Positions 119 through 12,982 of a stretch of DNA of 35,358 bases are shown here, piece after piece; within the stretch, counting starts at the first letter, position 1, and each line of letters opens with the position of its first letter. Below the pieces are notes generated by a model. That model worked only from the letters and a program-made list of their open reading frames with translations, was not told the DNA's origin and searched no databases. A program made the translations under genes and the position numbers. Source of the stretch: a virus (taxonomy: Duplodnaviria; Heunggongvirae; Uroviricota; Caudoviricetes); the IMG/VR virus record IMGVR_UViG_3300029957_000005, positions 128,001-163,358 of that record. One strand, given 5' to 3'.

Positions 119-194
119 TGGATCTCCGAGTAGGTCTCGAACCTACGTTGACCTGGTTCAATGCCAGGGGTCCTGCCAATTAGACGATCGGAGA
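119..194 (-). tRNA. tRNA-Gln(UUG), A33 instead of U33
   Basis: Cloverleaf TCTCCGA/TCGGAGA, loop CATTGAA, T-loop TTCGAGA, encoded CCA. Confidence 0.9.
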
Positions 195-398: not shown

Positions 399-414
399 TT
401 GCTTCCTTTGAAAT

Positions 415-501
415 TGGAGTACCGGGCGAGATTCGAACTCGCGGTGTCCTTTCGGAATCGGATTAAAAGTCCGACGTCGTCGACCGCTTGACTACCGGTA
501 C
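415..501 (-). tRNA. tRNA-Lys(UUU) with long variable arm, U73
   Basis: GTACCGG/CCGGTAC, loop CTTTTAA, variable arm TTCCGAAAGGACACC, CCA. Confidence 0.9.
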
Positions 502-504
502 ATG

Positions 505-873
505 TTACTTGGAGTGAGCCCTGCAGAAGGCGAGTGACTCACTCAAATTCGTGGAGATGATGTCCGTCTCCGTGAAGATCTTGTGCCTCAGTTCCCGGAC
601 TCCTTCCGGTTCATCGAAGGCAGTTCTGAAGTCGACCTGAGCCAGCTTTCCCAGTCTCGAGAGTCTTCCTTCGAGCTGAGCGATCTCAGCCCTGAGTTGG
701 AGCTCGATTGGATAGGAATGCAACTCGTCGAACTGAGACTGAACACCGAGAAGATTTTCGCGAAGGACTTGAGGGTCCACGCCTGGAACGTAGTCAACAT
801 GGACCTTCGTAGCTCCAATCAGCTTTCTGTATTCCTCGACTACGGCTTCGCAGTCCAATTCATTCTGAGTCAT
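505..873 (-). CDS. Hypothetical protein (start MTQNELD, 122 aa)
   Basis: ATG at 873 with GGAAGAAG upstream; the longer ORF start runs into a tRNA-like gene. Confidence 0.75.
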   Translation of the reverse strand: MTQNELDCEAVVEEYRKLIGATKVHVDYVPGVDPQVLRENLLGVQSQFDELHSYPIELQLRAEIAQLEGRLSRLGKLAQVDFRTAFDEPEGVRELRHKIFTETDIISTNLSESLAFCRAHSK

Positions 874-888
874 TTCACTTCTTCCATA

Positions 889-978
889 TGGCGCGCTCGG
901 AGGGAGTCGAACCCCCATTGATGCAATCTCCTCCGATTACGGTTACTGCGGGGTAGAAACCCGGACCGGTACGAGCGC
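889..978 (-). tRNA. Non-canonical D-armless tRNA-Arg(UCU)-like RNA
   Basis: Acceptor GCGCTCG/CGAGCGC, T-arm with TTCGACT, CCA, anticodon hairpin CGGG-TTTCTAC-CCCG, no D-arm, long 3' insert. Confidence 0.7.
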
Positions 979-985
979 TTGTCGA

Positions 986-1126
986 TTAGGACGCAGAACG
1001 AGCAATTGCCGAAATGTCAGCTCTTGCAATTCCGATGTCCGATAGTTCTCTGTTGGATAGGCTTGCAAGTTCGCTGACGGTGTGTCTGTAAACTTTCCAG
1101 GCCCTATACTTACGCATCAAATTCAT
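986..1126 (-). CDS. DUF1127 (YjiS-like) small Arg-rich protein, 46 aa
   Basis: Hand translation MNLMRKYRAWKVYRHTVSELASLSNRELSDIGIARADISAIARSAS fits the DUF1127 pattern W..YR.T..EL..LS.REL.DIGI.R.DI; AAGGAAG RBS; absent from ORF track. Confidence 0.9.
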   Translation of the reverse strand: MNLMRKYRAWKVYRHTVSELASLSNRELSDIGIARADISAIARSAS

Positions 1127-1191
1127 GTTTCTTCCTTTCGATTTGGTACTGTCTTATACTATACCAAAGAGGTAGAAATTAGAATTGATGA

Positions 1192-1396
1192 TTTGGAATA
1201 CCTAGTATTCCGAAATTCGATCGACTCCGTTTGCCGTTCCTTTCTTAGGGCCCGACTGCCTGTTTTCTAGAATGAACCAGATGACCACGGAGTCCGAGTA
1301 CGGTCACAATGCGTTGCGTGGCGCATTGTTTTCTGGTAGGTCACACCTTAAAGCCACCTAGCTGATGCATCTCCCGAGCTAGGTAGGACAGGTGGA
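1192..1396 (-). ncRNA. Multi-stem structured ncRNA candidate with possible pseudoknot
   Basis: ACCTAGCT/AGCTAGGT, ACCAGA/TCTGGT, ACAATGCG/CGCATTGT, GACTCCGT/ACGGAGTC, terminal GGAATA/TATTCC hairpin. Confidence 0.6.
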
Positions 1397-1398
1397 TA

Positions 1399-1484
1399 TG
1401 GAGGCGTGGGTGAGAATTGAACTCACTCTCATTGCTGAGACCTTGGCTTTGCAGGCCAGTTCGTTGCCGGTCCGACACCACGCC
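1399..1484 (-). tRNA. tRNA-Cys(GCA) with long variable arm
   Basis: GGCGTGG/CCACGCC, U73, loop CTGCAAA, variable hairpin TCTCA-GCAA-TGAGA. Confidence 0.9.
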
Positions 1485-1491
1485 TATAATT

Positions 1492-1581
1492 TGGAGTACC
1501 TGGAAGGATTCGAACCTTCGACGTCCTTACGGATCCGGATTAAGAGTCCGGCGCCTTCGACCAACTCGGCTACACAGGTAC
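1492..1581 (-). tRNA. tRNA-Lys(CUU) with long variable arm, U73
   Basis: GTACCTG/CAGGTAC, loop CTCTTAA, variable arm ATCCGTAAGGACGTC, 2 extra nt after acceptor 5' strand. Confidence 0.9.
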
Positions 1582-1600
1582 ATTTAGAGATTGATTGTCC

Positions 1601-1762
1601 TCAGAGCGTTTCGAGCTTCTTGTTCGGAAGGATCTTGCACCAGTTGAGGAGCGCACCACCTTCGACGAGAGCGCGAGACATCAGCATCTTTCCACGATAG
1701 ACTCCACCAACTTGAAGATGGGAGAAATTCCTGGAACGAACTTCTGAGGTAATCTTCAGCAT
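1601..1762 (-). CDS. Hypothetical early protein, 53 aa (MLKITSEVRSRN...)
   Basis: GGAGA RBS just downstream of an early promoter; hand translated; absent from ORF track. Confidence 0.65.
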   Translation of the reverse strand: MLKITSEVRSRNFSHLQVGGVYRGKMLMSRALVEGGALLNWCKILPNKKLETL

Positions 1763-1785
1763 ATCTATCTCCATTTGTTAGAAGC

Positions 1786-1813
1786 ATACTAACACATCAG
1801 GAGGAGATGTAAA
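1786..1813 (-). promoter_or_regulatory. T4-type early promoter
   Basis: TTTACA-N16-TAGTAT with TGTG upstream of -10; motif recurs five times in the window. Confidence 0.75.
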
Positions 1814-1822
1814 CTGAAAAAT

Positions 1823-1898
1823 TGGATCATCCACTAGGATTCGAACCTAGATTCTCCGACTTCAGAGGACGGCGTTCTACCAGTTAAACTACGGATGA
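1823..1898 (-). tRNA. tRNA-Gln(CUG)
   Basis: Cloverleaf, loop CTCTGAA, TTCGAAT, CCA. Confidence 0.93.
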
Positions 1899-1906
1899 AT
1901 ATGACC

Positions 1907-2401
1907 TTACTTCAGGTCTTTCGCCTTGACCCACTTGTCGTCGATGAAGACTTCAGAGAGGGACTCAGCTTGGTTTTCTGCCACGATCACGGACTCGTGG
2001 GGTCTTGGATTGGCCGAAACGTTCTTCGAAACGACCTTGACTTGAGACACAGTGCGAGAGATCCTGATGAAGGACCTATCGTCTGGATGGATCTTCCGAA
2101 ATTCAGCCAGCTGTCTGTTGTACTCTTCGTAGTACTTCTCGCGGTTCTCACCGTATGGACGGAAGGAGATGTCTGCTTCGAATTCGATGTAGTCCGGATT
2201 CTTATAGGAGACTTCGGCAAATCGATCCATCTGGACGACCTCGAGAACCTCTCTCCAGTAGGCCGATCCCTTGTTGGATCTCGAACCGGCAAAGCGGACT
2301 CGCATTCCTGGACGAAGGTTTTGAAGAACCCAGGTGGTTATCCGATCTTCACGATCTATGGTTCTCTGGGCCTGAGCCTGTGTTTCGTTATACCATGCCA
2401 T
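1907..2401 (-). CDS. Hypothetical protein, 164 aa
   Basis: TAAGGA RBS; fills inter-tRNA gap; phage-like codon use. Confidence 0.8.
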   Translation of the reverse strand: MAWYNETQAQAQRTIDREDRITTWVLQNLRPGMRVRFAGSRSNKGSAYWREVLEVVQMDRFAEVSYKNPDYIEFEADISFRPYGENREKYYEEYNRQLAEFRKIHPDDRSFIRISRTVSQVKVVSKNVSANPRPHESVIVAENQAESLSEVFIDDKWVKAKDLK

Positions 2402-2422
2402 TCTATGTTCCTTATTTCAAAT

Positions 2423-2494
2423 TGGTCCCTCTGCCGGGTAACGCTCCTGGAGAATCAGCCTTATGAGAGCCGTTCGACCACTTGATCCAGAGGG
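2423..2494 (-). tRNA. tRNA(CAU), Met or Ile2, atypical T-loop
   Basis: CCCTCTG/CAGAGGG, loop CTCATAA, T-loop AGCGTTA, CCA. Confidence 0.8.
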
Positions 2495-2500
2495 ATGTTT

Positions 2501-2574
2501 TGGTGCGGGTACAGAGACTCGAACTCTGGACTCCTGGTTGGAAGCCAGGCACGTTTCCTCTACGCCATACACGC
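2501..2574 (-). tRNA. tRNA-Gly(UCC), A73
   Basis: Loop CTTCCAA, T-loop TTCGAGT, CCA. Confidence 0.9.
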
Positions 2575-2581
2575 GTTGTTT

Positions 2582-2657
2582 TGGTGCGACTTCTTGGTTT
2601 CGATCCAAGCTCCCTGGTTTTTCAAACCAGCGCTTTCACCAGATTAGCTTAAGCCGC
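2582..2657 (-). tRNA. tRNA-Phe(GAA)
   Basis: Loop TTGAAAA, T-loop ATCGAAA, CCA. Confidence 0.9.
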
Positions 2658-2665
2658 ATGTTAGT

Positions 2666-2772
2666 ATTCGACCTCTTAGTCCTGCACGTCTCGGGAGAGA
2701 ATTTATCGGTTTTACCAGCAGTCCATGTTAAGTTAGTCCACGTTGTCCCGTTGCTCGTGGATTAGGTCGAAT
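2666..2772 (-). ncRNA. Structured ncRNA candidate
   Basis: 9-bp closing stem ATTCGACCT/AGGTCGAAT, hairpin TCCACG/CGTGGA, possible CGGGA/TCCCG long-range pairing. Confidence 0.55.
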
Positions 2773-2774
2773 TA

Positions 2775-2868
2775 TGGCGGAAGACGGAGAGCCCGAGTCC
2801 CATACGTGGTCTTAGCACGTACGCATCGCTTTCCAAGCGAGCCCAGCACCCTGTCTGGTTCATCTTCC
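2775..2868 (-). tRNA. tRNA-Ser(GGA), 8/4 fold
   Basis: 8-bp acceptor GGAAGATG/CGTCTTCC, 4-bp T-stem, long variable arm, G73. Confidence 0.85.
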
Positions 2869-2873
2869 ATATT

Positions 2874-2973
2874 TGGCGGACACTGTGAGGTTCTCACTCA
2901 CCATAGAGGTCGACAGCTTCTATCCATTAAGTTTCATCACGACCCGGACTGGGCAGGATGAAACTCCGTGTCC
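2874..2973 (-). ncRNA. Ser-like tRNA mimic with no canonical D or anticodon arm
   Basis: GGACAC/GTGTCC + GCCA, T-like arm TGAG-TGAGAAC-CTCA, long hairpin AGTTTCATC/GATGAAACT, variable-arm-like ATAGA/TCTAT. Confidence 0.7.
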
Positions 2974-2981
2974 ATATTCAA

Positions 2982-3070
2982 TGGCGGAAGGCAGAGGTCT
3001 CGATCCCCACACCCGTGAGGGTGCTCACTGCTTTCGAAGCAGGTCCAGAACCCCGTCTGGTTTACCTTCC
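2982..3070 (-). tRNA. tRNA-Ser(CGA), 8/4 fold
   Basis: GGAAGGTA/TGCCTTCC, loop TTCGAAA, long variable arm, G73. Confidence 0.87.
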
Positions 3071-3073
3071 AAT

Positions 3074-3166
3074 TGGCGGAAGACTGAGGTCACGCTCCCC
3101 ACACGTGGTACTAGCACGTGCCCACTGCTTTCAAGGCAGGTCCGATCCTCGACCGGTTAGTCTTCC
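3074..3166 (-). tRNA. tRNA-Ser(UGA), 8/4 fold
   Basis: GGAAGACT/AGTCTTCC, loop CTTGAAA, T-loop AGCGTGA, G73. Confidence 0.87.
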
Positions 3167-3172
3167 ATGTTT

Positions 3173-3249
3173 TGGTCCCGCCATCGGGATTTGAACCCGA
3201 GTCGCCTACCTTGAGAGGGTAGCATTCTTGACCACTAAACTACAGCGGG
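3173..3249 (-). tRNA. tRNA-Glu(CUC)
   Basis: Canonical cloverleaf, loop CTCTCAA. Confidence 0.93.
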
Positions 3250-3255
3250 TAATCT

Positions 3256-3332
3256 TGGTCCTCTTGAAAGGATTCGAACCTTCAACCTTGGCGTTAGGAG
3301 TGCCGAGCTCTGTCCGGTTGAGCTACAAGAGG
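3256..3332 (-). tRNA. tRNA-Arg(CCU)
   Basis: Canonical cloverleaf, loop CTCCTAA. Confidence 0.93.
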
Positions 3333-3337
3333 ATAAT

Positions 3338-3414
3338 TGGTCCGGCTGATGGGATTCGAACCCACATTGGACTCCTTGAAAGGGAGGCTTCCTAGGCCAT
3401 TAGAAGACAGCCGG
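3338..3414 (-). tRNA. tRNA-Glu(UUC)
   Basis: Canonical cloverleaf, loop CTTTCAA. Confidence 0.93.
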
Positions 3415-3422
3415 TTAATAAA

Positions 3423-3496
3423 GAGAGGCTCAGGAGTGTATGCCTGACTTACGCTGTCACCTCCGCTTGGTGACAGACCTAGGCTCCGAGGAGCAA
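3423..3496 (-). ncRNA. Small structured RNA candidate
   Basis: Hairpins CTGTCACC/GGTGACAG, TCAGG/CCTGA and GCTCC/GGAGC fill the spacer. Confidence 0.45.
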
Positions 3497-3498
3497 AT

Positions 3499-3573
3499 TG
3501 GCTGCAGAGGCTGGGTGTGAGCCAGCACCTCCGTCCCACAACGGGACGGCGCTCTCCATTAAGCTACTCCACA
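3499..3573 (-). tRNA. tRNA-like RNA, undetermined anticodon (7-bp stem, 5-nt loop GTTGT)
   Basis: Acceptor, D-arm and CCA present; anticodon arm CCGTCCC-GTTGT-GGGACGG; T-loop CTCACAC. Confidence 0.7.
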
Positions 3574-3574
3574 A

Positions 3575-3650
3575 TGGCGAGGATGACGGTATTCGAAACC
3601 GCAACTATTCCGCAGACAACGGAGCACCCTTCCCAGAGGGTCCCATCCCC
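3575..3650 (-). tRNA. tRNA-Asp(GUC), U37
   Basis: GGGGATG/CATCCTC, G73, loop TTGTCTG. Confidence 0.85.
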
Positions 3651-3652
3651 AT

Positions 3653-3803
3653 TAAGCTCTGTTCAAACCTCTCTCTTCGAGATACCGGATGGAGGGTGAG
3701 GACCTACATCTTTCCCCTCCCTCACGAAGAGCGGCAGCCATATTGGACCGCAGCCACATTGGACCGTAGCCGTCTTGAAGAGAAGAAGTTAGAACAGAGC
3801 TTA
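3653..3803 (-). ncRNA. Promoter-proximal long-stem ncRNA with internal 16-nt repeats
   Basis: Ends pair over about 30 bp (TAAGCTCTGTTC/GAACAGAGCTTA and beyond); begins 7 nt after an early -10 box. Confidence 0.7.
3734..3771. repeat. 16-bp tandem repeat x2.4 (GCAGCCAYATTGGACC)
   Basis: gcagccatattggacc gcagccacattggacc gtagcc. Confidence 0.85.
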
Positions 3804-3810
3804 CTGTGTT

Positions 3811-3839
3811 AGTCTATCATGCTTGTGAAGGCATGTAAA
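3811..3839 (-). promoter_or_regulatory. T4-type early promoter
   Basis: TTTACA-N17-TAGACT with TGn extension. Confidence 0.75.
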
Positions 3840-3842
3840 CTG

Positions 3843-3873
3843 AAAAAGTGGAGAAATGACCATGTTTCTCCGC
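3843..3873 (-). terminator. Intrinsic terminator
   Basis: GCGGAGAAA/TTTCTCCAC stem followed by TTTTT. Confidence 0.75.
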
Positions 3874-3889
3874 GAAGCAATTAAGAGCT

Positions 3890-3966
3890 TAACCTTTTGC
3901 AGACCGACAGACTTTCGTCTGACCTTATGTTTATCCACCGTGGGTCTATAGCGCAATCACGGTGCG
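3890..3966 (-). ncRNA. Pseudoknot-type RNA candidate
   Basis: CACCGTG/CACGGTG stem whose loop AGACC can pair with downstream GGTCT; inserted CAGAC-GAAA-GTCTG hairpin. Confidence 0.45.
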
Positions 3967-3974
3967 TTGGAATA

Positions 3975-4066
3975 TGGTGGGCCCCGGGACGTATCGCACG
4001 CCTTGCCGCATAGGGACCTGGTTTACAGCCAGGCAACCGGACTTCCGATTCTTACTTGCGGGGCCC
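3975..4066 (-). tRNA. tRNA-Tyr(GUA), atypical (8-bp acceptor, enlarged D region)
   Basis: GGGCCCCG/CGGGGCCC, loop CTGTAAA, T-loop TGCGATA, A73. Confidence 0.8.
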
Positions 4067-4072
4067 ATATGA

Positions 4073-4180
4073 AGGATTTTGCATTCTGCACGAATGAGAG
4101 TCGAACTCAATCGTTCCGGGACTTACACCCGTCTGCATCCTACTGGGAGAACCCATCTCCCTGCCCTTGTCGGGCATCTC
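4073..4180 (-). ncRNA. Structured RNA with two T-loop-like hairpins
   Basis: CGGG-TGTAAGT-CCCG and TGAG-TTCGACT-CTCA inside AGGAT/ATCCT, plus TGCCC/GGGCA and GGGAGA/TCTCCC; no CCA. Confidence 0.6.
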
Positions 4181-4185
4181 TGATT

Positions 4186-4261
4186 TGGCACGGGAAGCCA
4201 GATTCGAACTGACTCTAAACGTTTTGGAGACGTTTGTGCTAGGCCATTACACCATACCCGT
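4186..4261 (-). tRNA. tRNA-Trp(CCA)
   Basis: Canonical, loop CTCCAAA, G73. Confidence 0.93.
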
Positions 4262-4265
4262 ATGT

Positions 4266-4502
4266 TCACTTCACGAAGTGAGGCTGACCTTCCTTGGCCT
4301 TCCACTTCAATCCCTTCCAACCAGACGGGATGTAGTGAGAGATGCCAAAGGCATCGAAGAGACGATGACCACCTGACTTGGAGACGTTGAGCCAGAGAGG
4401 CTCCTCGATCCTGATAGTTTCGCCTACGAACTTGTATTCGCGCCATTCCTCCGAAGAGATATCCACGAATTCCAATCCCGACTTATTGTTGAAGTCTGAC
4501 AT
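4266..4502 (-). CDS. Hypothetical protein (start MSDFNNK, 78 aa)
   Basis: AAAGGA RBS before ATG at 4502; fills inter-tRNA gap. Confidence 0.8.
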   Translation of the reverse strand: MSDFNNKSGLEFVDISSEEWREYKFVGETIRIEEPLWLNVSKSGGHRLFDAFGISHYIPSGWKGLKWKAKEGQPHFVK

Positions 4503-4528
4503 GATTGAATTTCCTTTCTCTGTCAAAT

Positions 4529-4604
4529 TGGTACCAGTACTAGGTTACGCTCCTAGCTATACACGGTTATCGGCCGCGCCTCGTCACTAGCTGAGTCTAC
4601 TGGC
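4529..4604 (-). tRNA. tRNA-Ile(GAU), A18/G55 type, C33
   Basis: Loop CCGATAA, D-loop AG, T-loop AGCGTAA. Confidence 0.87.
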
Positions 4605-4610
4605 ATATTA

Positions 4611-4686
4611 TGGTGCTCTATCCAGGTATCGCGCCTGGTGCCTCCTGGATGTCGACCAGGCGTCTTTACTAACTGACCCATAGAGC
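4611..4686 (-). tRNA. tRNA-Val(GAC), A18/G55 type, C33
   Basis: Loop TCGACAT, T-loop CGCGATA. Confidence 0.87.
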
Positions 4687-4692
4687 ATTAAT

Positions 4693-4767
4693 TGGAACTA
4701 GAGGAGAGGCTCGAACTCTCAATTCCGGGGACACAACCCAGCCGGTTACCATTACCGTCACTCTAGC
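4693..4767 (-). tRNA. tRNA-His(GUG), no G-1, G1-U72, U37
   Basis: GCTAGAG/CTCTAGT, loop TTGTGTC, position -1 is T. Confidence 0.85.
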
Positions 4768-4777
4768 ATGTTCGTTT

Positions 4778-4869
4778 TGGTACGCGATCTGGGTTTCGAT
4801 CCCAGTCAAGAACGGTCATCTACCGCTAAAGGCTTTATAAGGGCCTCTCATGTCCCAACATCATCGCGT
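4778..4869 (-). tRNA. tRNA-Ile(UAU) with long variable arm
   Basis: ACGCGAT/ATCGCGT, loop CTTATAA, variable hairpin AGCGGT-AGATG-ACCGTT. Confidence 0.8.
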
Positions 4870-4877
4870 ATTCTAAT

Positions 4878-4954
4878 TGGTAGGCCTAGAGGGAGTTGAA
4901 CCCACAACCACTACGTTCTAAGCGTAGCCGCTTTGCCAATTTGCGTATAAGCCC
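4878..4954 (-). tRNA. tRNA-Leu(UAG), short variable loop
   Basis: Loop CTTAGAA, 5-nt variable loop, A73. Confidence 0.9.
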
Positions 4955-4960
4955 ATATTT

Positions 4961-5037
4961 TGGTGCTCTGAGAGGGAGTCGAACCCTCACTGTACGGCAT
5001 CTCAGTCCGCTTCCTCTACCAATTGGGATATCAGAGC
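4961..5037 (-). tRNA. tRNA-Leu(GAG), short variable loop
   Basis: Loop CTGAGAT, 5-nt variable loop, A73. Confidence 0.88.
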
Positions 5038-5045
5038 AATTCGTT

Positions 5046-5121
5046 TGGAGCCCACATCGGGTAACGCTCCCGCTTCACCGGTTTACAGGACCGGACCTCA
5101 TCTAATAAAGGCGTTGTGGGC
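5046..5121 (-). tRNA. tRNA-Thr(UGU), A18/G55 type, C33
   Basis: Loop CCTGTAA, T-loop AGCGTTA. Confidence 0.83.
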
Positions 5122-5128
5122 AGATAGG

Positions 5129-5182
5129 AAGGAGAGGCTCCGTCTTGATCACCGATCAGACCACCGAGTAGTTCCTCTCCTT
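5129..5182 (-). ncRNA. Irregular hairpin RNA candidate
   Basis: AAGGAGAGG/CCTCTCCTT closing stem with inner GTCT-GATC/GATC-AGAC. Confidence 0.4.
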
Positions 5183-5185
5183 GAT

Positions 5186-5260
5186 TGGAGCTTCCTGTCA
5201 GTAACGCTCTGACTTCTCACCCTTACGAAAGGCGCACATCGCTTTTAATGCTTAGGAAGC
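5186..5260 (-). tRNA. tRNA-Thr(CGU), A18/G55 type
   Basis: Loop TTCGTAA, T-loop AGCGTTA. Confidence 0.85.
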
Positions 5261-5267
5261 ATGAATT

Positions 5268-5330
5268 GATCGAGGCCTTGCACCTCGCCAGCCGTAGCAT
5301 TGTTAGAGACCTATGACGCGGCTCAGGTCT
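5268..5330 (-). ncRNA. H-type pseudoknot followed by a T-loop hairpin
   Basis: AGACCTG/TAGGTCT, loop AGCCG pairs with downstream CGGCT, then CGAGG-TGCAAGG-CCTCG. Confidence 0.55.
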
Positions 5331-5332
5331 TT

Positions 5333-5408
5333 TGGTTGCGGGGGCTGGGTTTGAACCAGCGTCTCCGGCTTATGAGGCCAGCAAGGAACCGGGCTCCTCT
5401 ACCCCGCA
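5333..5408 (-). tRNA. tRNA-Met(CAU), initiator-like
   Basis: TGCGGGG/CCCCGCA, A11-U24, loop CTCATAA; lacks the full three G-C anticodon-stem pairs. Confidence 0.88.
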
Positions 5409-5421
5409 ATATTCCGGTTGT

Positions 5422-5477
5422 TGGTATCAGGGCGAATCACCTCATGAAAGCGATTCCGTCGGCCGACTGACCCTGAG
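5422..5477 (-). ncRNA. 56-nt CCA-ended, T-armless mini-tRNA-like RNA with CAU loop
   Basis: TCAGGG/CCCTGA + TACCA; GAATCGCT-TTCATGA-GGTGATTC hairpin. Confidence 0.55.
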
Positions 5478-5479
5478 AA

Positions 5480-5554
5480 TGGTGGCCCCTCTCCCTTGCA
5501 AGGAAAGATCCTCTCCCTCAACGGGAGCGCTTTGTGCCTTTAAGCTAAAGGGCC
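5480..5554 (-). tRNA. tRNA-like RNA, undetermined anticodon (5-nt loop GTTGA)
   Basis: GGCCCTT/AGGGGCC + ACCA, D-arm, CTCCC-GTTGA-GGGAG, T-loop CTTGCAA. Confidence 0.7.
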
Positions 5555-5559
5555 AAACT

Positions 5560-5633
5560 TGGTGCTCTCAATAGGTTACGCTCCTATCTCTGCTCCTTAC
5601 CAAAGAGCTATTCTACTAATGAAATATGAGAGC
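5560..5633 (-). tRNA. tRNA-Thr(GGU), A18/G55 type
   Basis: Loop TTGGTAA, T-loop AGCGTAA. Confidence 0.87.
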
Positions 5634-5638
5634 AAATA

Positions 5639-5713
5639 TGGTACTTCCTGAGAATTCCGAGATCTCGACCTTCGGTATGTAACACCGCTGCTCTGCCTCT
5701 GAGCTAAGGAAGT
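5639..5713 (-). tRNA. tRNA-Val(UAC)
   Basis: Loop GTTACAT, atypical T-loop CTCGGAA, A73. Confidence 0.85.
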
Positions 5714-5725
5714 ATGAATTCTTCT

Positions 5726-5799
5726 CGACGAACCTGCAAGGAATCGAACCCTGTGTTTCCCTCTGCACGAGAGCGTCCTATCCACTAGACGAAGGTTCT
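5726..5799 (-). tRNA. tRNA-like RNA or pseudo-tRNA (5-nt loop GTGCA, no encoded CCA)
   Basis: D-arm GTCT/GGAC, T-arm with TTCGATT, acceptor GAACCT/AGGTTC. Confidence 0.6.
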
Positions 5800-5800
5800 C

Positions 5801-5906
5801 AGACAAAGACCGATCCGGCAAGACCGGCATAATCGTCTGCGAGTCAACAAGGCCCGAGTGGATTGCCGTCCAACCTTCCTTGTTCGAAGAGGGTAACAAT
5901 CTCTTC
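5801..5906 (-). ncRNA. Three-hairpin structured spacer
   Basis: GAAGAG/CTCTTC, AACAAGG/CCTTGTT, AGAC..CCGG/CCGG..GTCT. Confidence 0.4.
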
Positions 5907-5910
5907 TTAA

Positions 5911-5987
5911 TGGTGCCTAAGGAGGTATTCGAAACCTCATACACCTCTTTTTGAGGGAGGCCGCTTTGCCTCTTTGCGTACTCAGGC
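5911..5987 (-). tRNA. tRNA-Leu(CAA), short variable loop
   Basis: Loop CTCAAAA, 5-nt variable loop, A73. Confidence 0.9.
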
Positions 5988-5992
5988 TTATT

Positions 5993-6067
5993 TGGTGGAG
6001 AAGGTGGGTAACGCTCCCACTAGGCTGGAATCTTGCAAGGATTCCCCGGGTATCTCACCCCATCCCC
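5993..6067 (-). tRNA. tRNA-Ala(UGC), reduced D-arm
   Basis: G3-U70, loop CTTGCAA, T-loop AGCGTTA. Confidence 0.83.
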
Positions 6068-6078
6068 AATTCTTGAAT

Positions 6079-6142
6079 TGGTGCCACCGATAGCCGAAGA
6101 GACAACAATGATTACCGCTCGGTGGCAACACGGGTCATTGTA
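6079..6142 (-). ncRNA. CCA-ended pseudoknotted small RNA
   Basis: GCCACCGA/TCGGTGGC + ACCA; 5' ACAATGA complementary to loop TCATTGT. Confidence 0.6.
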
Positions 6143-6144
6143 TT

Positions 6145-6218
6145 TGGAGCGGATAGTGGGGATCAAACCCACCTCAACGGCTTGGAAGGCCGAGGCACAG
6201 TCACTATACCATATCCGC
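6145..6218 (-). tRNA. tRNA-Gly(UCC), second copy, U73
   Basis: GCGGATA/TATCCGC, loop CTTCCAA, A19/U56 swap. Confidence 0.9.
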
Positions 6219-6224
6219 AGTAAT

Positions 6225-6314
6225 TGGCTCCTATCGCAGGTACCGCCCCTGCCCCACCTTTCGATGGCCTTCCGGTTAACAGCCGGAGACTTTCACTATG
6301 CCAGTCCGATAGGA
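6225..6314 (-). tRNA. tRNA-Asn(GUU) with long variable arm
   Basis: TCCTATC/GATAGGA, G73, loop CTGTTAA, variable hairpin CCATC-GAAA-GGTGG, T-loop GGCGGTA. Confidence 0.85.
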
Positions 6315-6317
6315 ATA

Positions 6318-6606
6318 TTGCTCTTTCGAGCAAAACGACTAAACCGATATTTGGTCAGAATGGCCTCGGTTAAAGGGCAGCAGAAAATTCGATGGGTCCA
6401 CGTTTTGAAAGGACCGGACCCTTTACGCTTGGAGTTAAGTGGGTAAGTCCACCTCCAGAACGACTCGTATACCTTCTTTGGAGTCCGACTCTTACTGCCG
6501 GATACCTGTAAAGGACAATCTTCAATTGTCTAAGAACCCGAGCTTTCTTAGGCTCGTACCTTCCGGAGAAGGATTTCTGACCGAGCCCAGTTGGTCTCAA
6601 GGTCGT
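6318..6606 (-). ncRNA. About 290-nt highly structured ncRNA, unknown family
   Basis: Ten or more stems incl. ACGAC/GTCGT, GGTCAGAA/TTCTGACC, CCTTTAC/GTAAAGG, GGGTCC/GGACCC; no credible ORF; bounded by tRNAs. Confidence 0.65.
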
Positions 6607-6608
6607 AT

Positions 6609-6683
6609 TGGTCAGGATGGTTGGTAACGCTCCAACTTTGCGGACTTCCAAGGTCCACCGATGATCTTATCTCTTACACCCTG
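6609..6683 (-). tRNA. tRNA-Pro(UGG), A18/G55 type, A37
   Basis: CAGGGTG/CATCCTG, loop CTTGGAA, T-loop AGCGTTA. Confidence 0.85.
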
Positions 6684-6757
6684 TTTATGCACTCGGATCT
6701 TTATCCTATCACGTTTTTCGGTCGTCTGAAACTCTTTTTTCGGTTTCAGTTAAAATT

Positions 6758-6840
6758 TGGAGCTCACGACAGGCTTCGAACCTGCATCTACCTATCCAGT
6801 TACCTTTGTCCTCGTTCGTAGCGAGGGGGGATACGTGAGC
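6758..6840 (-). tRNA. Non-canonical D-armless tRNA-Arg(ACG)-like RNA
   Basis: GCTCACG/CGTGAGC + TCCA, CCTCG-CTACGAA-CGAGG, T-loop TTCGAAG, no D-arm. Confidence 0.75.
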
Positions 6841-6914
6841 ATGTGGTCTATATATGACGATCTTCAGATTTCCAGGAGGATTTTTTCGGATCGTTTCAAC
6901 TTTTCGATAATGAC

Positions 6915-6971: not shown

Positions 6972-7136
6972 TTAGAGATCGGGAATTTCGATGACTTCGT
7001 AGTAAATCGGGTTCTCTCTATAATAGACGAGATGGCGATAGGTCGGATCGAACTTCATCGCCTTCTCGATTGAGAAACCCCAGGTCCCATTCTCTTGACG
7101 ATACTTCTGGGTGTGGACACTCTTGACGATGATCAT
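6972..7136 (-). CDS. Hypothetical protein, 54 aa (MIIVKSVHTQK...)
   Basis: ATGA overlap with upstream stop; hand translated. Confidence 0.65.
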   Translation of the reverse strand: MIIVKSVHTQKYRQENGTWGFSIEKAMKFDPTYRHLVYYRENPIYYEVIEIPDL

Positions 7137-7840
7137 AGGTCGATGAACTTCGCGTGGTAGCCTGAGTAGTTGTCTTCACGCGGATAGCCTCGCGGATGAC
7201 AGAGGATCCTGGTCGAGCCGATCATGTAGTCGAATGACTGATGAACGTGACCGTGGATTGCGACTTCGATGTTCGGACACTGAAGGATCCAATCGTCCAG
7301 ATCGTTGACGAAGGAGCCGTTCAGGGGACCACCAGCGAATCTTGGAGAGATAGATTGCTTGGACAGACCGTGGTGCGTCAGGAGGATGATCCTCTTGTTC
7401 CAGTTGGTGCTGACAATTCTACGAATTTCAGTGAACTGGGTCTTGAAGCAGTTCAGGGCTCTCTGGGCGTTCCAGTCCTTGATGTAGTTCTTGTCGTTCA
7501 GGAACTTGTACTCGTCGATCTCCTTGGGAGTCTCTCCGAAGTAGTTCGTCCAGAGGGTGGCCGAGACGACAAGGAAATCTCCGATCGTCGTCTCTTCGAC
7601 ACCCCAGTCCTCTGGAGTCGTATGCCAATTCTGATAGAAGTCGTGATTGCCCATGACCTTGACATACGGACCGAGGTCCTCCAAGGCCAGGATGAAGTCC
7701 GGGTTGTAGATGTTCGAGAAGTCCCCGGCATTCAGAATCAGATCTGGCTTTTCGTCAGCTGCCTGTTTGAAGAGGCGAGCTTGAAGGACCTGCTGCTCCA
7801 GTCCGGAGACATGCAGGTCCGAGAAGTACATGACTTTCAA
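7133..7840 (-). CDS. Calcineurin-like metallophosphoesterase
   Basis: SDLH, AGD, GNHD, THH and HGHVH motifs. Confidence 0.92.
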   Translation of the reverse strand: MKVMYFSDLHVSGLEQQVLQARLFKQAADEKPDLILNAGDFSNIYNPDFILALEDLGPYVKVMGNHDFYQNWHTTPEDWGVEETTIGDFLVVSATLWTNYFGETPKEIDEYKFLNDKNYIKDWNAQRALNCFKTQFTEIRRIVSTNWNKRIILLTHHGLSKQSISPRFAGGPLNGSFVNDLDDWILQCPNIEVAIHGHVHQSFDYMIGSTRILCHPRGYPREDNYSGYHAKFIDL

Positions 7841-7845
7841 GGTGA

Positions 7846-8544
7846 TTAGCCCTTTTTGGCTGAAGCTTTCTTGGCCGGCTTCTTGAATTCTTCTTCGGCC
7901 TTTTCGATGATGGCTGCCGTCTCTTCATCCACATTCGGGATGGAGATAACGACCTCAGACTTCACGTCCTCGTCGCCGAAGGTTTCGGTCTCGTCGATCT
8001 TGGCGACCTTGACCACATCAGCTTCTGGATCGTAGTCACCAGGCTTGATCACACGTGGTTTAGCAGGTACGGATCCCTGATCGTCCACTCCAGCCTTGGA
8101 AGAGGCTTTGCCCTTCTTCTGAAGAGCTTCAATATCCTCTGCAGAAAGTTCGGGGAAGAGAGCCGGAAAGATCTTCTGGACGTCGGCGAAAGTGAGGCCG
8201 ATTTCCAGATCCTTGTCCTTCAGAGCAGTGATGAGGATGACCTCTTCCTTGGACAGCGGCTGGAGAATACGGAGCCAGGACTTCTCGAGCTTCGGGCCGG
8301 CTTCGAGGGTGACCAGCGGTGGAATTGAACGGATCATCTTCTCGAGCGAACCGTACGGGTGGGTGTTGAACTTGTAGTCCACCGGAAGGCCGGCCGGGAG
8401 TTCGAACTTGATGGATGGGTCGAAGAGCATCTTCAGGCATCCGGCGAGGGACACCGAGTATTCCTCATTGATGATCTTGGTCTTTTCCTGGATCGTCTCT
8501 GCCTTAGCGATGGCATCGAAAACTTCTGGTAGTGATTTCTTCAC
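7846..8544 (-). CDS. Conserved T4-like hypothetical protein
   Basis: FDPSIKFELP.G motif; position next to rnh as in exo-T4 phages. Confidence 0.8.
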   Translation of the reverse strand: MKKSLPEVFDAIAKAETIQEKTKIINEEYSVSLAGCLKMLFDPSIKFELPAGLPVDYKFNTHPYGSLEKMIRSIPPLVTLEAGPKLEKSWLRILQPLSKEEVILITALKDKDLEIGLTFADVQKIFPALFPELSAEDIEALQKKGKASSKAGVDDQGSVPAKPRVIKPGDYDPEADVVKVAKIDETETFGDEDVKSEVVISIPNVDEETAAIIEKAEEEFKKPAKKASAKKG

Positions 8545-8555
8545 GTATCTTCCTT

Positions 8556-9497
8556 TTACTTGTTTCTAAAGTCCCCAATCACATCGAGCATGTTCTTCAT
8601 TCTGTTTGCGATGAAGGCTTGACGCAGGGTTTCGAGGTTGCCCCTCGGAGTTTCGGTCTCTCTTATATACACCTCTTCGATGGAGGCTTCCACGTCCTTC
8701 GGAATTCCGTGGATCAGATCGATCAGCTTCTTGTTTCGATCGAACCTCTGAAGGAAGAGTTCCTTGGAGATCTTCTTGACCTCGATGGTCTCCGGGTTCT
8801 CGAAGCCGGCCTTGAACTCGGTGACGAATTTCTCCATGATCGGAGTCTGACGGATCTTGTCGATCAGGCAGTTGTCGGCAGAGAGGACATTCGGGACTCC
8901 ATCTCCGGCGTCTCCACGAGCGATGTGCTCCATGAAGAATCCACGAGGGTCTTTGCACTTCAGGTTCTTCTTGAGGGTCGGAGAGTACTGATCCACGTTC
9001 GGAAGGATCTGGAGCTGCTGGAAGTCCTTGTCTCCGGAGAGGATCAGGACCTTCTCAGGCTTTGCTGTCTCCTGACCGAAACCACCGAAGTCGTCATCGG
9101 CGGAGTCAGGAGCGGCAAACTTGCGAGTCAGCCAGGCGATGATGTCGTCTGCTTCTGCTCCAGGCACCCGGATCACCGGATACGGAGAGAACTCGTCCAG
9201 CAGGTCCGCGGTCTCCTTGACCGTCTGATAGACCAGCTTCCAGAACTCCTCGTCGTCCTTCCTGTCCTCGGCCCTTCGAGCCTTGTAGAGAGGAAAGTAG
9301 GACTTCCTCCAGGAGGTGGAGTCCACACAGAGGTAGACCTTACCGTATTGTCCCTTGAACTTCATGGTGTTCATTCGAAGGGAGTTGATGATGAAGTGCT
9401 TGGCGAGCGCCGGTTCCAGAGGAACGTTCGGGTTCGCAGCTTTCTCGGCAGCGATGCCGGCGAGAGAGATTTGTGAGAAGTCGACTAGAATTGGCAT
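8556..9497 (-). CDS. rnh: T4-like RNase H (5'-3' exonuclease)
   Basis: ILVDFSQI, WRK.YFP.YK, EADDII, SGDKDF.QL, GD.GDGVPN. Confidence 0.95.
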   Translation of the reverse strand: MPILVDFSQISLAGIAAEKAANPNVPLEPALAKHFIINSLRMNTMKFKGQYGKVYLCVDSTSWRKSYFPLYKARRAEDRKDDEEFWKLVYQTVKETADLLDEFSPYPVIRVPGAEADDIIAWLTRKFAAPDSADDDFGGFGQETAKPEKVLILSGDKDFQQLQILPNVDQYSPTLKKNLKCKDPRGFFMEHIARGDAGDGVPNVLSADNCLIDKIRQTPIMEKFVTEFKAGFENPETIEVKKISKELFLQRFDRNKKLIDLIHGIPKDVEASIEEVYIRETETPRGNLETLRQAFIANRMKNMLDVIGDFRNK

Positions 9498-9541
9498 GAT
9501 CTGATACTATCTCTTCTTGAGAGGAAAGGACACTGAAAAGT

Positions 9542-10594
9542 TCAGAAGACCTTCATGAGGAGAGTCTCCTCGTTGATCCGGCAGTTGTGAACGCTCGGAG
9601 TGGTCTTGATCTCTTCAAACAGTCGGTCCATGGCTGCTTTGGTCGTTCCGAAGAAGTTCTTCATGATTTCCGGCTTTCGGATCCTCTTGCGCTCGGACTT
9701 GTCCACATTCTGGAGGGTGGTTCCCTTGAGGTCGAACCCTGCCTTGGACTCGAACCTGGTCAGCTCACGATACTTGGAGTTGAAGGTCCAGAGCACATTG
9801 GCTCCGAGCATCTTCTCCGGATCGATCGAGGCGAGGGACAGGTCTTGATCGGTCTTCTTGAAGCGGAGGTGCTTGAGTTTCTTGTCGACCGGAACCGCTT
9901 TCTTCTTCCTCGGAGACAGGATCTTCTTGGCCGCGTGGATGAAGTCCAGGGTGTTCAGACAGGACTCGTAGAAATCGATCATGGCTCTCTTGTCCTTGAC
10001 CGTCATGTGAGAGAAGGCTTCCTTGACGTCCCGATCTCGGCTCTTGAGTTCCTCGAGACGCGGTCCGATCAGGTCCTTGAGTTCCTGAGCAGCATACTTC
10101 GGGATCGAGGCAGAGAAGGTGGCGAAGGTCGCTTCCGCTGCTTTGTAGTCCCCGTTCCGGAAGATCATGTCCTCGATGTCGTCGAAGTCAGCGACGTGCT
10201 TGCGCTCCTTATAGAGAGGAACGATCTCCTCGACCACGGCCGCAACCACCGGCTCCGGCTTCTTCTTGGACTTCGGAAAGTCCCGCTCGAGCTCGGCGAA
10301 GTACTTCCGCATCTTCTTGAGGATGAAGTCCGGGAAAATGCAGTTCACATCGATCATCATCCCGATCCAGGCGTAGGTCAGGTTCTGTCGGCTGTGGGGT
10401 ACTTCGGTCCATTCAATCTTGCGATTGTTCTTCTCGAGATAGGTCCGGGCATCCTTTTGGGAGTAGACATAATTGTACCAATTGTAGGCTTTAGCGATTT
10501 CCGCACCCGTTGATTCGGTGAAATCCAGATCGGCCGGAGCTTCACCCATCCCAAGCATCTTGACGCTTGCGGGTCTCGTTTTCTTCTTTGACAT
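9542..10594 (-). CDS. Conserved T4-like hypothetical protein
   Basis: YNWYNY, LWTFN.KYR.L, KGTTL and RINE motifs typical of the gene upstream of rnh. Confidence 0.85.
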   Translation of the reverse strand: MSKKKTRPASVKMLGMGEAPADLDFTESTGAEIAKAYNWYNYVYSQKDARTYLEKNNRKIEWTEVPHSRQNLTYAWIGMMIDVNCIFPDFILKKMRKYFAELERDFPKSKKKPEPVVAAVVEEIVPLYKERKHVADFDDIEDMIFRNGDYKAAEATFATFSASIPKYAAQELKDLIGPRLEELKSRDRDVKEAFSHMTVKDKRAMIDFYESCLNTLDFIHAAKKILSPRKKKAVPVDKKLKHLRFKKTDQDLSLASIDPEKMLGANVLWTFNSKYRELTRFESKAGFDLKGTTLQNVDKSERKRIRKPEIMKNFFGTTKAAMDRLFEEIKTTPSVHNCRINEETLLMKVF

Positions 10595-10600
10595 GTCAGC

Positions 10601-10963
10601 TCAATTCTTTGGTTCGAAGAGGTGATTATTCTCAAAGTACGGGAGTTCCTTGGCCTTTGCGAAATTCGTGGTTCTGTTGAGATAGTCCATAAAGGCCACT
10701 GCATGAGTCGTGCTCAGTTGAGCGACTCCAATCACTCGGTTTTTCTGAATACTCTGATTTTCTTCGGATGTAAACAGAAAAATGTCATAGTACCCCATTT
10801 GTGAACCATTCGTCTGAAGTCCACGGAAGAAGGAGACATCGAGAGCCAGGACGTTTGGATCATTCATGTCTTTCTGGAGATCCGATCCGTAGGCAATTCC
10901 CTTGACGATTCCAGAGACTCCCATATCGATCAGGATCATATAGGCGGTGGCGTTCTGCTTCAT
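10601..10963 (-). CDS. Hypothetical protein (start MKQNATAY)
   Basis: ATGA overlap with uvsW stop. Confidence 0.75.
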   Translation of the reverse strand: MKQNATAYMILIDMGVSGIVKGIAYGSDLQKDMNDPNVLALDVSFFRGLQTNGSQMGYYDIFLFTSEENQSIQKNRVIGVAQLSTTHAVAFMDYLNRTTNFAKAKELPYFENNHLFEPKN

Positions 10964-12477
10964 AGTGAGACCTTCTTGTAAATTATCTTGAGTTTTTCTT
11001 CGGTGTAGTACTTGAGACGCATCAGACCGTGAGTCCACGTGTGATTAGCATTCTCTCCAACCTTTATATCATCGATCAGATCGAAAAGGTAACCTGATTT
11101 TCCATCTCTCGAAGGACGAAGTAGTCTTCCGAGGGACTGAAGAATTCTGATGCGTCCTTTTGCCGGAGCAGCCAGGATCCCGTTGTGCAGGTTCCTGATG
11201 TTGATGCCGAGCTGAAAGAGCTGATAGGTCGACAGAACGACGACGCCTGAGTGTGACTCCACATAGGCCCTGATCGCATCTCTCTCCTCGGCGCTCATGG
11301 TCGAGGACATCCTCTGGACGTCGATGCCGGCCTGAGTCAGGATCTTCTCGATCTTGTCGATGTGCTCAATGTTCCTGAAGAGGATCAGGGTGTTGGTGGT
11401 CTTGAGCTTCTGACAGAGCTTGATGATGACCTGATTTCTGCGACGATGCATGATCAGGAACTTGAGTTCGAGGGCGAAGACCTTCTGGTTCTGCTGCTTC
11501 TTCTTGAGTTCCTTGACTGCCTGCCAGAACGTCTTCCGATCGCCTTCCGGGTATCCGAGAATCATGGCCACGATCGGAGTGTTGGACAGGAGTCCTTCCT
11601 CCATGAGCTCATGAGTCCTTTTGGTGTAGATCAACTCACCGAACAGGCCGACCAAGGCCAGAGGGTTCATCTTGGATTCCTTGAGAGTCCCGGTGGTGCC
11701 GATCTTATAGAGAGCGTTCACGGACCCTTCGACGATCCTGGTGATTCCCTTGGACTCGGCCAGATGGACCTCATCGACGAAAGTTCCGTCGAACTGCTCA
11801 AAGAACTTGAGGCCTTTGATCTGGTCCATGGACTGCCAGGTGGTGATGTTGATCTTCTTGACCGCGTCCTTGTCCTTGCCGCCGTAGATCTGATGGCACA
11901 TCTTGTCCACGTCGAAGCCAGGATCCTTGGCCGAGTACTCTCCGAAGTCCTTGTACATCTGAGTGACCAGGTTGATGGTCGGAACCACAAGAAGAGTCTT
12001 GCGAAACAGGGCCCTGGACAGCCCGTACCTCAGGATCAGGTAGAGAATGAAGGACTTGCCGGAACCAGTAGGAGATATTACGATCGCTCTCCTCGTCCTC
12101 AGGGACTCTAGGACCGCCGCCTTCTGATAATCCCTGAGCTCTATCTCCGGTGGGAGAACTAGCCCAGAATAGAAGCGATCGAAATCTGCTTCGAGAGACA
12201 CAGGATCTACATCGTCCGGGAACCCGGTCTTCTCTATCTCACATCCGGCTTCGTTCAGGAGTTCTTCAAGCTGAGGAGCAAGGCCGAGTGGAAGGGTGTT
12301 GAAGCGTGAGTTGAACAGCCGAATACGGCCGTCCCACATCCGGGACTTGACCTTTGGATGCCACTTGTATCCTTCTGCGAAGAATGAGAAATGCTCGGAG
12401 ATCGTCTGACACAGGGAGGACGAGGCATTCACGTACACATAAGTCTCATTCAACTTCTTGAGTTGAACCTGTTCCAC
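10960..12477 (-). CDS. uvsW: UvsW SF2 helicase (start uncertain; ORF open to 12534)
   Basis: WDGRIRLF, SPTGSGKS, DEVH, QSLGRLLR. Confidence 0.95.
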   Translation of the reverse strand: MEQVQLKKLNETYVYVNASSSLCQTISEHFSFFAEGYKWHPKVKSRMWDGRIRLFNSRFNTLPLGLAPQLEELLNEAGCEIEKTGFPDDVDPVSLEADFDRFYSGLVLPPEIELRDYQKAAVLESLRTRRAIVISPTGSGKSFILYLILRYGLSRALFRKTLLVVPTINLVTQMYKDFGEYSAKDPGFDVDKMCHQIYGGKDKDAVKKINITTWQSMDQIKGLKFFEQFDGTFVDEVHLAESKGITRIVEGSVNALYKIGTTGTLKESKMNPLALVGLFGELIYTKRTHELMEEGLLSNTPIVAMILGYPEGDRKTFWQAVKELKKKQQNQKVFALELKFLIMHRRRNQVIIKLCQKLKTTNTLILFRNIEHIDKIEKILTQAGIDVQRMSSTMSAEERDAIRAYVESHSGVVVLSTYQLFQLGINIRNLHNGILAAPAKGRIRILQSLGRLLRPSRDGKSGYLFDLIDDIKVGENANHTWTHGLMRLKYYTEEKLKIIYKKVSL

Positions 12478-12499
12478 CTCATATGTATCGTCCTCTAGG

Positions 12500-12946
12500 T
12501 CAGCCGTTTCCAGAGGTGAACCTATCCCACTCAATGGCTGACTTGATGTGATCCTTCCTGTCTCGGATCATCCAGAGTATCGAGGTCAAGAGTTCCTTGA
12601 GGGAGTCGTACTCCGAGATCTTTTCCAGGACCTTGGCGTAGTCGTCATCCGCTTTGATGTAGACATCCAGATCGGACTTCTGAACCTTGAGGTGGAAGTT
12701 CTTCTCGCGATACTCGTCCGGGTCACCCTTCCCATTATAGAAGAGAGACTTCTCGAGGAACATCTTGTCCTTGCGCCTCTTGAGCTTGGCCAACTGGGCG
12801 TTGGTCTGCTTCATGAGGTTTAGGTATTTGAAGTGAAGCTTGGAGATGTTCACGGCTTCTTGACTGAGATTGTACCGATCCAGCTTGGAGTCGGCTTCCC
12901 AGAAGACCATGATCTTATCGGTGATGGACTGTTCTTCTTCTGACAT
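12500..12946 (-). CDS. uvsY: UvsY recombination mediator
   Basis: WEADSKLD, LHFKYL, YNGK, IKSAIEWDRF; synteny. Confidence 0.92.
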   Translation of the reverse strand: MSEEEQSITDKIMVFWEADSKLDRYNLSQEAVNISKLHFKYLNLMKQTNAQLAKLKRRKDKMFLEKSLFYNGKGDPDEYREKNFHLKVQKSDLDVYIKADDDYAKVLEKISEYDSLKELLTSILWMIRDRKDHIKSAIEWDRFTSGNG

Positions 12947-12982
12947 GGTTACATTCTACCATCCCAGACGAGGATCTGCTAC

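Follow-up and report, generated by a model that had tools for sequence, protein, structure and literature searches.

What occupies the long spacer between the tRNA-Pro and tRNA-Asn genes of an uncultured phage, in a tRNA array where neighboring genes are mostly separated by gaps of 1 to 10 nucleotides (nt)? We analyzed a DNA stretch of 35,358 nt, referred to here as the window, which forms the final 35 kb of an IMG/VR phage record (163 kb) with an estimated completeness of 93%. The record carries the T4-type markers UvsW helicase, gp32, T4-type RNase H, and NrdA/B (both ribonucleotide reductase subunits). Judged by its genes, the source is a distant T4-type phage that is uncultured, and the nearest cultured phages by UvsW (about 36% identity) infect Pelagibacter, Synechococcus, and Sinorhizobium. 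The tRNA array covers positions 119 to 6840, with 23 tRNA genes called by ARAGORN at its default threshold and up to 28 at a relaxed one, all of them on the minus strand. An earlier note, made from the letters of this DNA, had placed a structured RNA with nine stems between tRNA-Pro and tRNA-Asn. ARAGORN confirmed this location, with tRNA-Asn called at the relaxed threshold. The element, as we call the spacer RNA, starts with AUACGA directly at the CCA of tRNA-Pro and adjoins both tRNAs. Its coordinates and those of its parts are collected in Table 1.

Relatives were reached via the metallophosphoesterase gene at positions 7133 to 7840, 500 nt upstream of the element. The related metallophosphoesterases, at 75% and 60% identity, lay on ENA/Logan contigs that shared with the window the gene order RNase H, DUF6433, phosphoesterase, and then the tRNA array. 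The element was found in four lineages on ENA, Logan, and JGI contigs: the window itself; L041, a close relative of the window that came from one metagenome pattern scan; lineage A (L029, L030, and L032 with the near-identical variant L031); and lineage B (L033 and L034). Full-length homologues were recovered by nhmmer and cmsearch from L029, L031, L033, and L041, and in all three further lineages they occupied the same position, directly after tRNA-Pro. Contigs L036, L037, and L042 stop short of the array.

Across the collections searched, the distribution of the element is narrow. Among cultured phages, a “distant” blastn search with positions 6219 to 6700 gave no match, and megablast with positions 7000 to 27000 gave none either, which indicates that the phage is without a close relative in culture. 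In IMG/VR, RNase H led to relatives of at most 39% identity, all of which lacked the element, and the L002 record had no match to it. Five conserved blocks used as exact patterns against viral contigs returned one chance match, in a coding region; two exact patterns against the genome collection returned nothing, and a neighboring 74-amino-acid open reading frame (ORF) used as the query led to no further lineages. No paralogues were detected in the genome. The element is present in a single copy per genome and lies outside all repeat families. L038 was rejected as a homologue: its 170-nt spacer after tRNA-Pro shares a few similar short motifs by eye, and nhmmer and cmsearch found no relationship. 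In the more distant relatives L039 and L040, which lack the element, a putative homing-endonuclease ORF fills the site after tRNA-Pro. In L039 this ORF (12409 to 12927, 172 amino acids) has an N terminus that looks GIY-YIG-like by eye, and L040 is likewise. The arrays of these two contigs also hold a tRNA (L039 15199 to 15273, likewise in L040) whose UUA anticodon would decode the stop codon UAA.

Compared across the lineages, the element is non-coding, with no frame conserved. Two mechanically called ORFs overlap it, one at 6370 to 6651 on the minus strand (93 amino acids) and one at 6033 to 6446 on the plus strand (137 amino acids); both also overlap tRNA genes, and the overlapping ORFs had no PHROG match. 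Every reading frame contains stops in every lineage, and the indels between homologues are of 1, 2, and 4 nt. No terminator or sigma-70-like promoter consensus was found within the element or at its borders, and ARAGORN at the relaxed threshold detected nothing tRNA-like within it. Only on the minus strand can the UNCG-type loops and several of the G-U pairs form. Since the consensus fold energies of the two strands are similar (−65.5 kcal/mol for minus versus −63.5 kcal/mol for plus), the strand was assigned from genomic context: all neighboring genes are on the minus strand, and the element is probably transcribed from it as well.

Pairwise, the window's copy of the element was 96% identical to that of L041 and 83% identical to that of lineage A, and comparisons with lineage B gave 68 to 70%. 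When the parts of the array were set side by side for the window and lineage B, identity was 64% for the element, compared with 56% for tRNA-Pro, 35% for tRNA-Asn, and 53 to 54% for neighboring non-tRNA spacers; the proteins beside the array were 60 to 68% identical. Invariant columns made up 178 of the 285 in the core, and the longest invariant runs were 20 nt (6398 to 6417), 18 nt (6513 to 6530), and 17 nt (6362 to 6378). Purifying selection acts on the element no less strongly than on the tRNAs. One invariant loop contains UCCUUUC, which presumably resembles the 3′ end of 16S rRNA (an anti-Shine-Dalgarno idea).

Single-sequence folding of the element is not beyond chance, and the support for a fold comes from the four-lineage comparison. 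The minimum free energy (MFE) z-score against dinucleotide shuffles was −1.5 for positions 6330 to 6608 and −2.3 for 6219 to 6608, and the plus strand of the single sequence folded about as well as the minus strand. From five sequences, RNAalifold produced a consensus fold with 68 pairs; counting the consensus structure and one candidate tertiary helix, 95.9% of cells were paired. Ten pairs had changed on both sides, compared to 4.2 ± 1.4 in shuffles (0 of 500 shuffles reached 10), although this statistic is weak because only four lineages are available, among them two close pairs, and related sequences may beat shuffles without any structure. When partners were slid by 1 to 3 columns, at most one compensatory pair appeared. 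The compensatory changes were spread over five helices, and the counts support a conserved RNA fold without proving each helix. The structured non-coding RNA suggested by the earlier note was thus borne out, at a length of about 280 nt, by conservation and covariation over four lineages, and the homologue alignment that it had proposed contained conserved pairing.

Table 1. Positions in the window of the element, its flanking tRNA genes, and its structural features
Feature	Position	Strand	Remarks
tRNA-Pro(UGG)	6609-6683	minus	ARAGORN; encodes CCA
Whole spacer RNA between tRNA-Pro and tRNA-Asn (the element)	6315-6608	minus	core common to all lineages, 6338-6608
5′ domain, extended hairpin	6534-6604	minus	RNAalifold
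H1	6596-6604 with 6534-6542	minus	C/U changes opposite G
H2	6582-6588 with 6550-6556	minus	first pair G-U, U-A, or G-C by lineage
Apical hairpin of 5′ domain	6559-6572	minus	5-bp stem, UNCG-type tetraloop
Invariant 7-bp hairpin	6514-6530	minus	inside the 18-nt invariant run
Variable hairpin (CCGGC/GTCGG)	6480-6506	minus	three compensatory pairs
Two-tier hairpin	6426-6462	minus	outer TGGAG/CTCCA-type stem; inner 4-bp stem, 6-nt loop
Hairpin GGNNCC/GGNNCC	6394-6421	minus	loop within the 20-nt invariant run
3′ region	6342-6376	minus	6-bp hairpin, 6366-6371 with 6342-6347; 17-nt invariant run
Candidate loop pairing	6355-6359 (3′ hairpin loop) with 6576-6580	minus	predicted
Candidate long-range helix	6472-6476 with 6372-6376	minus	predicted
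Extra 3′ hairpin, GAAA loop	6318-6333	minus	window's lineage only; absent from L041, L029, and L033
tRNA-Asn(GUU)	6225-6314	minus	90 nt; ARAGORN at relaxed threshold only

In the 5′ domain, MFE folding gave H2 and the apical hairpin in all lineages and H1 also in the window, L041, and lineage A. The apical tetraloop reads UCCG, UUCG, or CUCG across the three main lineages, on an invariant stem. The invariant 7-bp hairpin never varies and so says nothing on pairing, either way. The variable hairpin is replaced in lineage B by one with another sequence. The two-tier hairpin holds four compensatory pairs, and its inner stem changes from GUGG/CCAC in the window to GCUG/CAGC in lineage A. The GGNNCC hairpin adds two compensatory pairs: the window has GGGUCC/GGACCC, L041 has GGACCC/GGGUCC, and lineages A and B both have GGGCCC/GGGCCC. 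The 3′ hairpin and the long-range pairings are predicted only, since their bases are invariant or nearly so.

All nine stems listed by the earlier note are present in the sequence when it is read on the minus strand, and in the four-lineage comparison six of them were kept or covaried and three were not conserved as listed. The first group comprises CCTTC/GAAGG, GACAAT/ATTGTC, CCGGC/GTCGG, TGGAG/CTCCA, and GGGTCC/GGACCC, together with CGAGC/GCTCG, which is kept though it competes with a second pairing. The outer closing stem ACGAC/GTCGT is absent in lineages A and B and has a changed 3′ copy already in L041, while GACTC/GAGTC fails in lineages A and B. Of the 8-bp stem GGTCAGAA/TTCTGACC, lineage A retains a core of 5 bp, and an additional base breaks up the stem in lineage B.

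Rfam 15 (4227 models, including RNase P, tmRNA, group I/II introns, ROOL, GOLLD, HDV-like RNAs, Y RNA, 6S, and SRP) gave no match over positions 6315 to 6608 at the gathering threshold, nor at E ≤ 10 with permissive filters. The homologues of L041, L033, and L031 also had no match at E ≤ 10. The Rfam search that the earlier note had proposed therefore returned no known family, in agreement with its view that the RNA is not an RNase P, tmRNA, or group I RNA; its guess of a new or little-known class is consistent with the finding that no described family matches.

Taken together, we believe, with a probability of roughly 60%, that the element is a stable minus-strand accessory non-coding RNA of about 280 to 294 nt that is cut from the tRNA precursor and acts in trans. 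Conservation, covarying helices, the absence of coding capacity, and the absence of a known-family match are the observations from which this reading starts. The element would be co-transcribed within the polycistronic tRNA array. Maturation of tRNA-Pro at its CCA end would create the 5′ end of the element and an RNase P cut at the 5′ end of tRNA-Asn its 3′ end, with host enzymes doing the processing. The predicted fold begins with an extended hairpin at the 5′ end, which carries a UNCG-type tetraloop at its tip, and continues through four central hairpins to one at the 3′ end. Once released, this folded RNA would persist at about 280 to 294 nt; we infer release and persistence from the anatomy of the locus and the precedent of T4 rnaC/rnaD, ROOL, and GOLLD. 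The invariant loops and joining strands would most likely contact a partner (protein or RNA) or make tertiary or oligomer contacts. In trans, the element could serve as a stable accessory RNA of the unusual tRNA set of the phage. Among possible partner systems, Ro60 (TROVE, PF05731) was absent from the 163-kb record in a search that detected the control genomes, YrlA had no match in the element, and RtcB is not encoded by the phage.

A complementarity was observed at the far end of the array, in the 27-nt spacer 5′ of tRNA-Gly(GCC) (G000:C1:127602-127619, left of the window). This spacer is complementary to positions 6508 to 6525 of the window, with 17 matches in 18 positions and an unbroken run of 13, and the target is a strand of the invariant hairpin with the CCUUUAC that follows it. 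The blastn-short E value was 0.14 genome-wide, and a 12-nt core of the complementarity is kept in lineage A. This could be pairing in trans, pairing within the precursor, or chance.

The array itself is unusual in several respects. The variable arm of tRNA-Asn(GUU) is long and paired, with a GAAA loop at its end, and the T-loop of this tRNA is odd; the tRNA-Lys and tRNA-Cys genes (ARAGORN) are also 86 to 90 nt with long variable arms. In the window and lineage A, the T-loop of tRNA-Pro is AGCGUUA, not the usual UUCGAAU type, and this tRNA has no Rfam tRNA match; lineage B tRNA-Pro (L033 11562 to 11640) has a canonical T-arm and an Rfam tRNA score of 58.6 bits. The odd T-arm of tRNA-Pro recurs in several tRNAs of the array (repeat families D2, D3, and D9). 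Three tandem tRNA-like repeats (families D6, D7, and D10), which ARAGORN did not call at its default threshold, lie at positions 2774 to 3160 (minus strand) and 3975 to 4179. The spacer at 3975 to 4179 shares 88% identity with lineage A, compared with 75 to 80% on average over the array, so other spacers may hold further conserved RNAs. Between an Arg(ACG)-like RNA and tRNA-Pro, a conserved hairpin with an A-rich loop (6726 to 6749, minus strand) has a stem that covaries over three lineages: CUGAAAC/GUUUCAG, CGGGAAC/GUUUCCG, and GAAAAC/GUUUUC. Further upstream, an ATATA-rich motif (about 6846 to 6858, minus strand; TATATAG, TATAGATA, or TATATAAAG) stands 10 to 20 nt before the first tRNA-like gene of the array and recurs at the same place in L029, L033, L038, and L039; we take it to resemble the T4 late-promoter box TATAAATA.

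Outside the window, ARAGORN found a separate phage tmRNA on the minus strand (G000:C1:125406-125794) with the tag ANDNVSYEGVALAA. We took the ARAGORN asterisk on this tmRNA to mean the permuted (two-piece) form. Tags like ANDNVSYEGVALAA and permuted tmRNAs are typical of Alphaproteobacteria, and these two features may hint at an alphaproteobacterial host.

The element might instead work only in cis, as a processing or folding spacer whose structure exists in the precursor, spaces or orders the cuts of RNase E, RNase P, and 3′ trimming at the unusual tRNA-Pro and tRNA-Asn, and is then degraded. The direct contact of the element with both tRNAs fits such a role, and so does the covarying hairpin upstream of tRNA-Pro; neighboring tRNAs with odd T-loops or arms might need processing help. 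However, most tRNAs of the array manage with gaps of 1 to 10 nt, and invariant loop runs of 17 to 20 nt in an architecture of about 280 nt far exceed what a cleavage platform needs. We consider a purely cis-acting spacer unlikely.

Could the element be a bistable switch? The earlier note had suggested a pseudoknot or switch from the pairings of TAAAGG with CCTTTA and of CTCGG with CCGAG. In all lineages, the strand CGAGCC can pair either upstream, forming H2, or downstream, forming CGAGC/GCUCG. In addition, three AAAGG-like purine segments and four CCUUU-like pyrimidine segments could swap partners on a signal. Each of the two CGAGCC pairings has one compensatory pair, which over four lineages is anecdotal, and the MFE fold of the 5′ domain chooses H2 in every lineage, with H1 also in three. 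UAAAGG, several CCUUU segments, CUCGG/CCGAG, and UCAGA/UCUGA consist of bases invariant in the four lineages, so the comparison speaks neither for nor against a switch or pseudoknot built on these pairings. Because the next genes are tRNAs, a switch would have no expression platform or downstream ORF to control, and we regard this idea as improbable.

The description “ribozyme-sized” in the earlier note holds as a statement of size only, as nothing indicates catalysis. One could think of a self-cleaving RNA that makes the 3′ end of tRNA-Pro, or of a much-reduced RNase P-like RNA for the non-canonical tRNAs of the phage; the 5′ end of the element does lie directly at the CCA of tRNA-Pro. Theta ribozymes, which are HDV-like RNAs of gut phages, hold exactly this position and begin directly at the 3′ end of phage tRNAs; they are double pseudoknots of about 50 to 60 nt that start with G, mostly after tRNAs without an encoded CCA (PMC10879173). 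Their fold nests P1, P1.1, P2, P3, and P4, with a catalytic C in J4/2. In contrast, the element follows a CCA-encoding tRNA, and the first base of its AUACGA start is A, not G. By eye, no HDV-like P1/P2 nesting was found, nor any P1 partner within the first 90 nt or so, and HDV-type, RNase P, and other ribozyme families gave no match in the element even at E ≤ 10. By eye, a short segment of the 3′ part resembles the RNase P RNA motif ACAGAA...CGGCUUA, but in the RNAalifold structure the putative P4-like strands are a simple local hairpin. A catalytic RNA at this site is therefore very improbable.

We assign a similarly small chance to the idea that there is no RNA function at all and that the element is what is left of decayed tRNA genes, of an intron, or of a mobile insertion, or else a site acting at the DNA level, conserved through the closeness of the lineages. 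The family is very narrow, and the differing content after tRNA-Pro, with a GIY-YIG-type ORF in L039 and an unrelated 170-nt spacer in L038, implies that the locus is changeable. Against this, the element is more conserved than its flanking tRNAs at a distance where proteins are only 60 to 68% identical, it shows compensatory changes in five helices, and it contains no tRNA-like unit. A small protein or a plus-strand RNA is hardly credible: ORFs overlap the element on both strands and the plus-strand consensus energy is similar, but the ORFs are unconserved, run into tRNAs, match no PHROG, and are broken by stops and by the small indels, the neighbors are all on the minus strand, and the UNCG loops and G-U pairs exist on that strand alone.

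Returning to the stable accessory RNA that we prefer, the element is a candidate new RNA family, defined by comparison of four metagenomic lineages, of a kind (structured RNAs in phage tRNA arrays) that is already known. It offers a compact, testable architecture in which the strongly conserved loops look like binding surfaces. If expressed and stable, it would be a tractable handle on whether such RNAs help to mature tRNAs, control translation, or evade host defense. A bolder version, which we consider a long shot, makes the element the founding member of a new “ornate” phage RNA class with an activity of its own (catalysis or RNA-only assembly) that co-evolved with a re-engineered tRNA set. 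If that were true, the RNA could process, protect, or deliver phage tRNAs, such as the long-armed Lys, Cys, and Asn tRNAs and those with altered T-loops, and would help where the host tRNA machinery fails or anti-phage tRNA nucleases attack.

How does the element compare with known systems? RNase P RNA, tmRNA, and group I introns share with it a similar size range, several helices, and a link to tRNA biology. They differ in that their models have no match at E ≤ 10 in the window or its homologues, and the phage has its separate tmRNA. Structured RNAs in tRNA clusters have been known since T4 RNA C/D, followed later by ROOL and GOLLD, none with an established function. The T4 RNAs rnaC (species 1, 139 nt) and rnaD (species 2, 119 nt) lie at the end of the T4 tRNA cluster. 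They are stable and expressed late, and their function is still not known (PMC9697503). Like the element, they are non-coding RNAs that a T4-type phage encodes within its tRNA cluster; they share the strand of the tRNAs and lie directly beside one, but they are half the size of the element. T4 rnaC has a T-arm-like GGUUCGAAUCC and rnaD a CCA end, whereas the element has neither tRNA-like feature. Homology to the T4 RNAs was rejected: with the covariance model of the element (R1) and cmsearch filters off, the best score in the T4 cluster was 3.2 bits (E value of 0.3).

ROOL (about 580 nt) and GOLLD (about 800 nt) are large, intricately folded phage or prophage RNAs that often lie near tRNA islands, have no known protein partner or function, and assemble into RNA-only cages (PMC12286853). 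The element has in common with them that it is phage encoded and near a tRNA island. It is two to three times smaller and matches neither at E ≤ 10. By our comparisons, its likeness to T4 rnaC/rnaD, ROOL, and GOLLD is one of genomic setting only. Alongside these RNAs, the element would stand as a family of its own, unrelated to them and intermediate in size, in a T4-like phage with unusual tRNAs.
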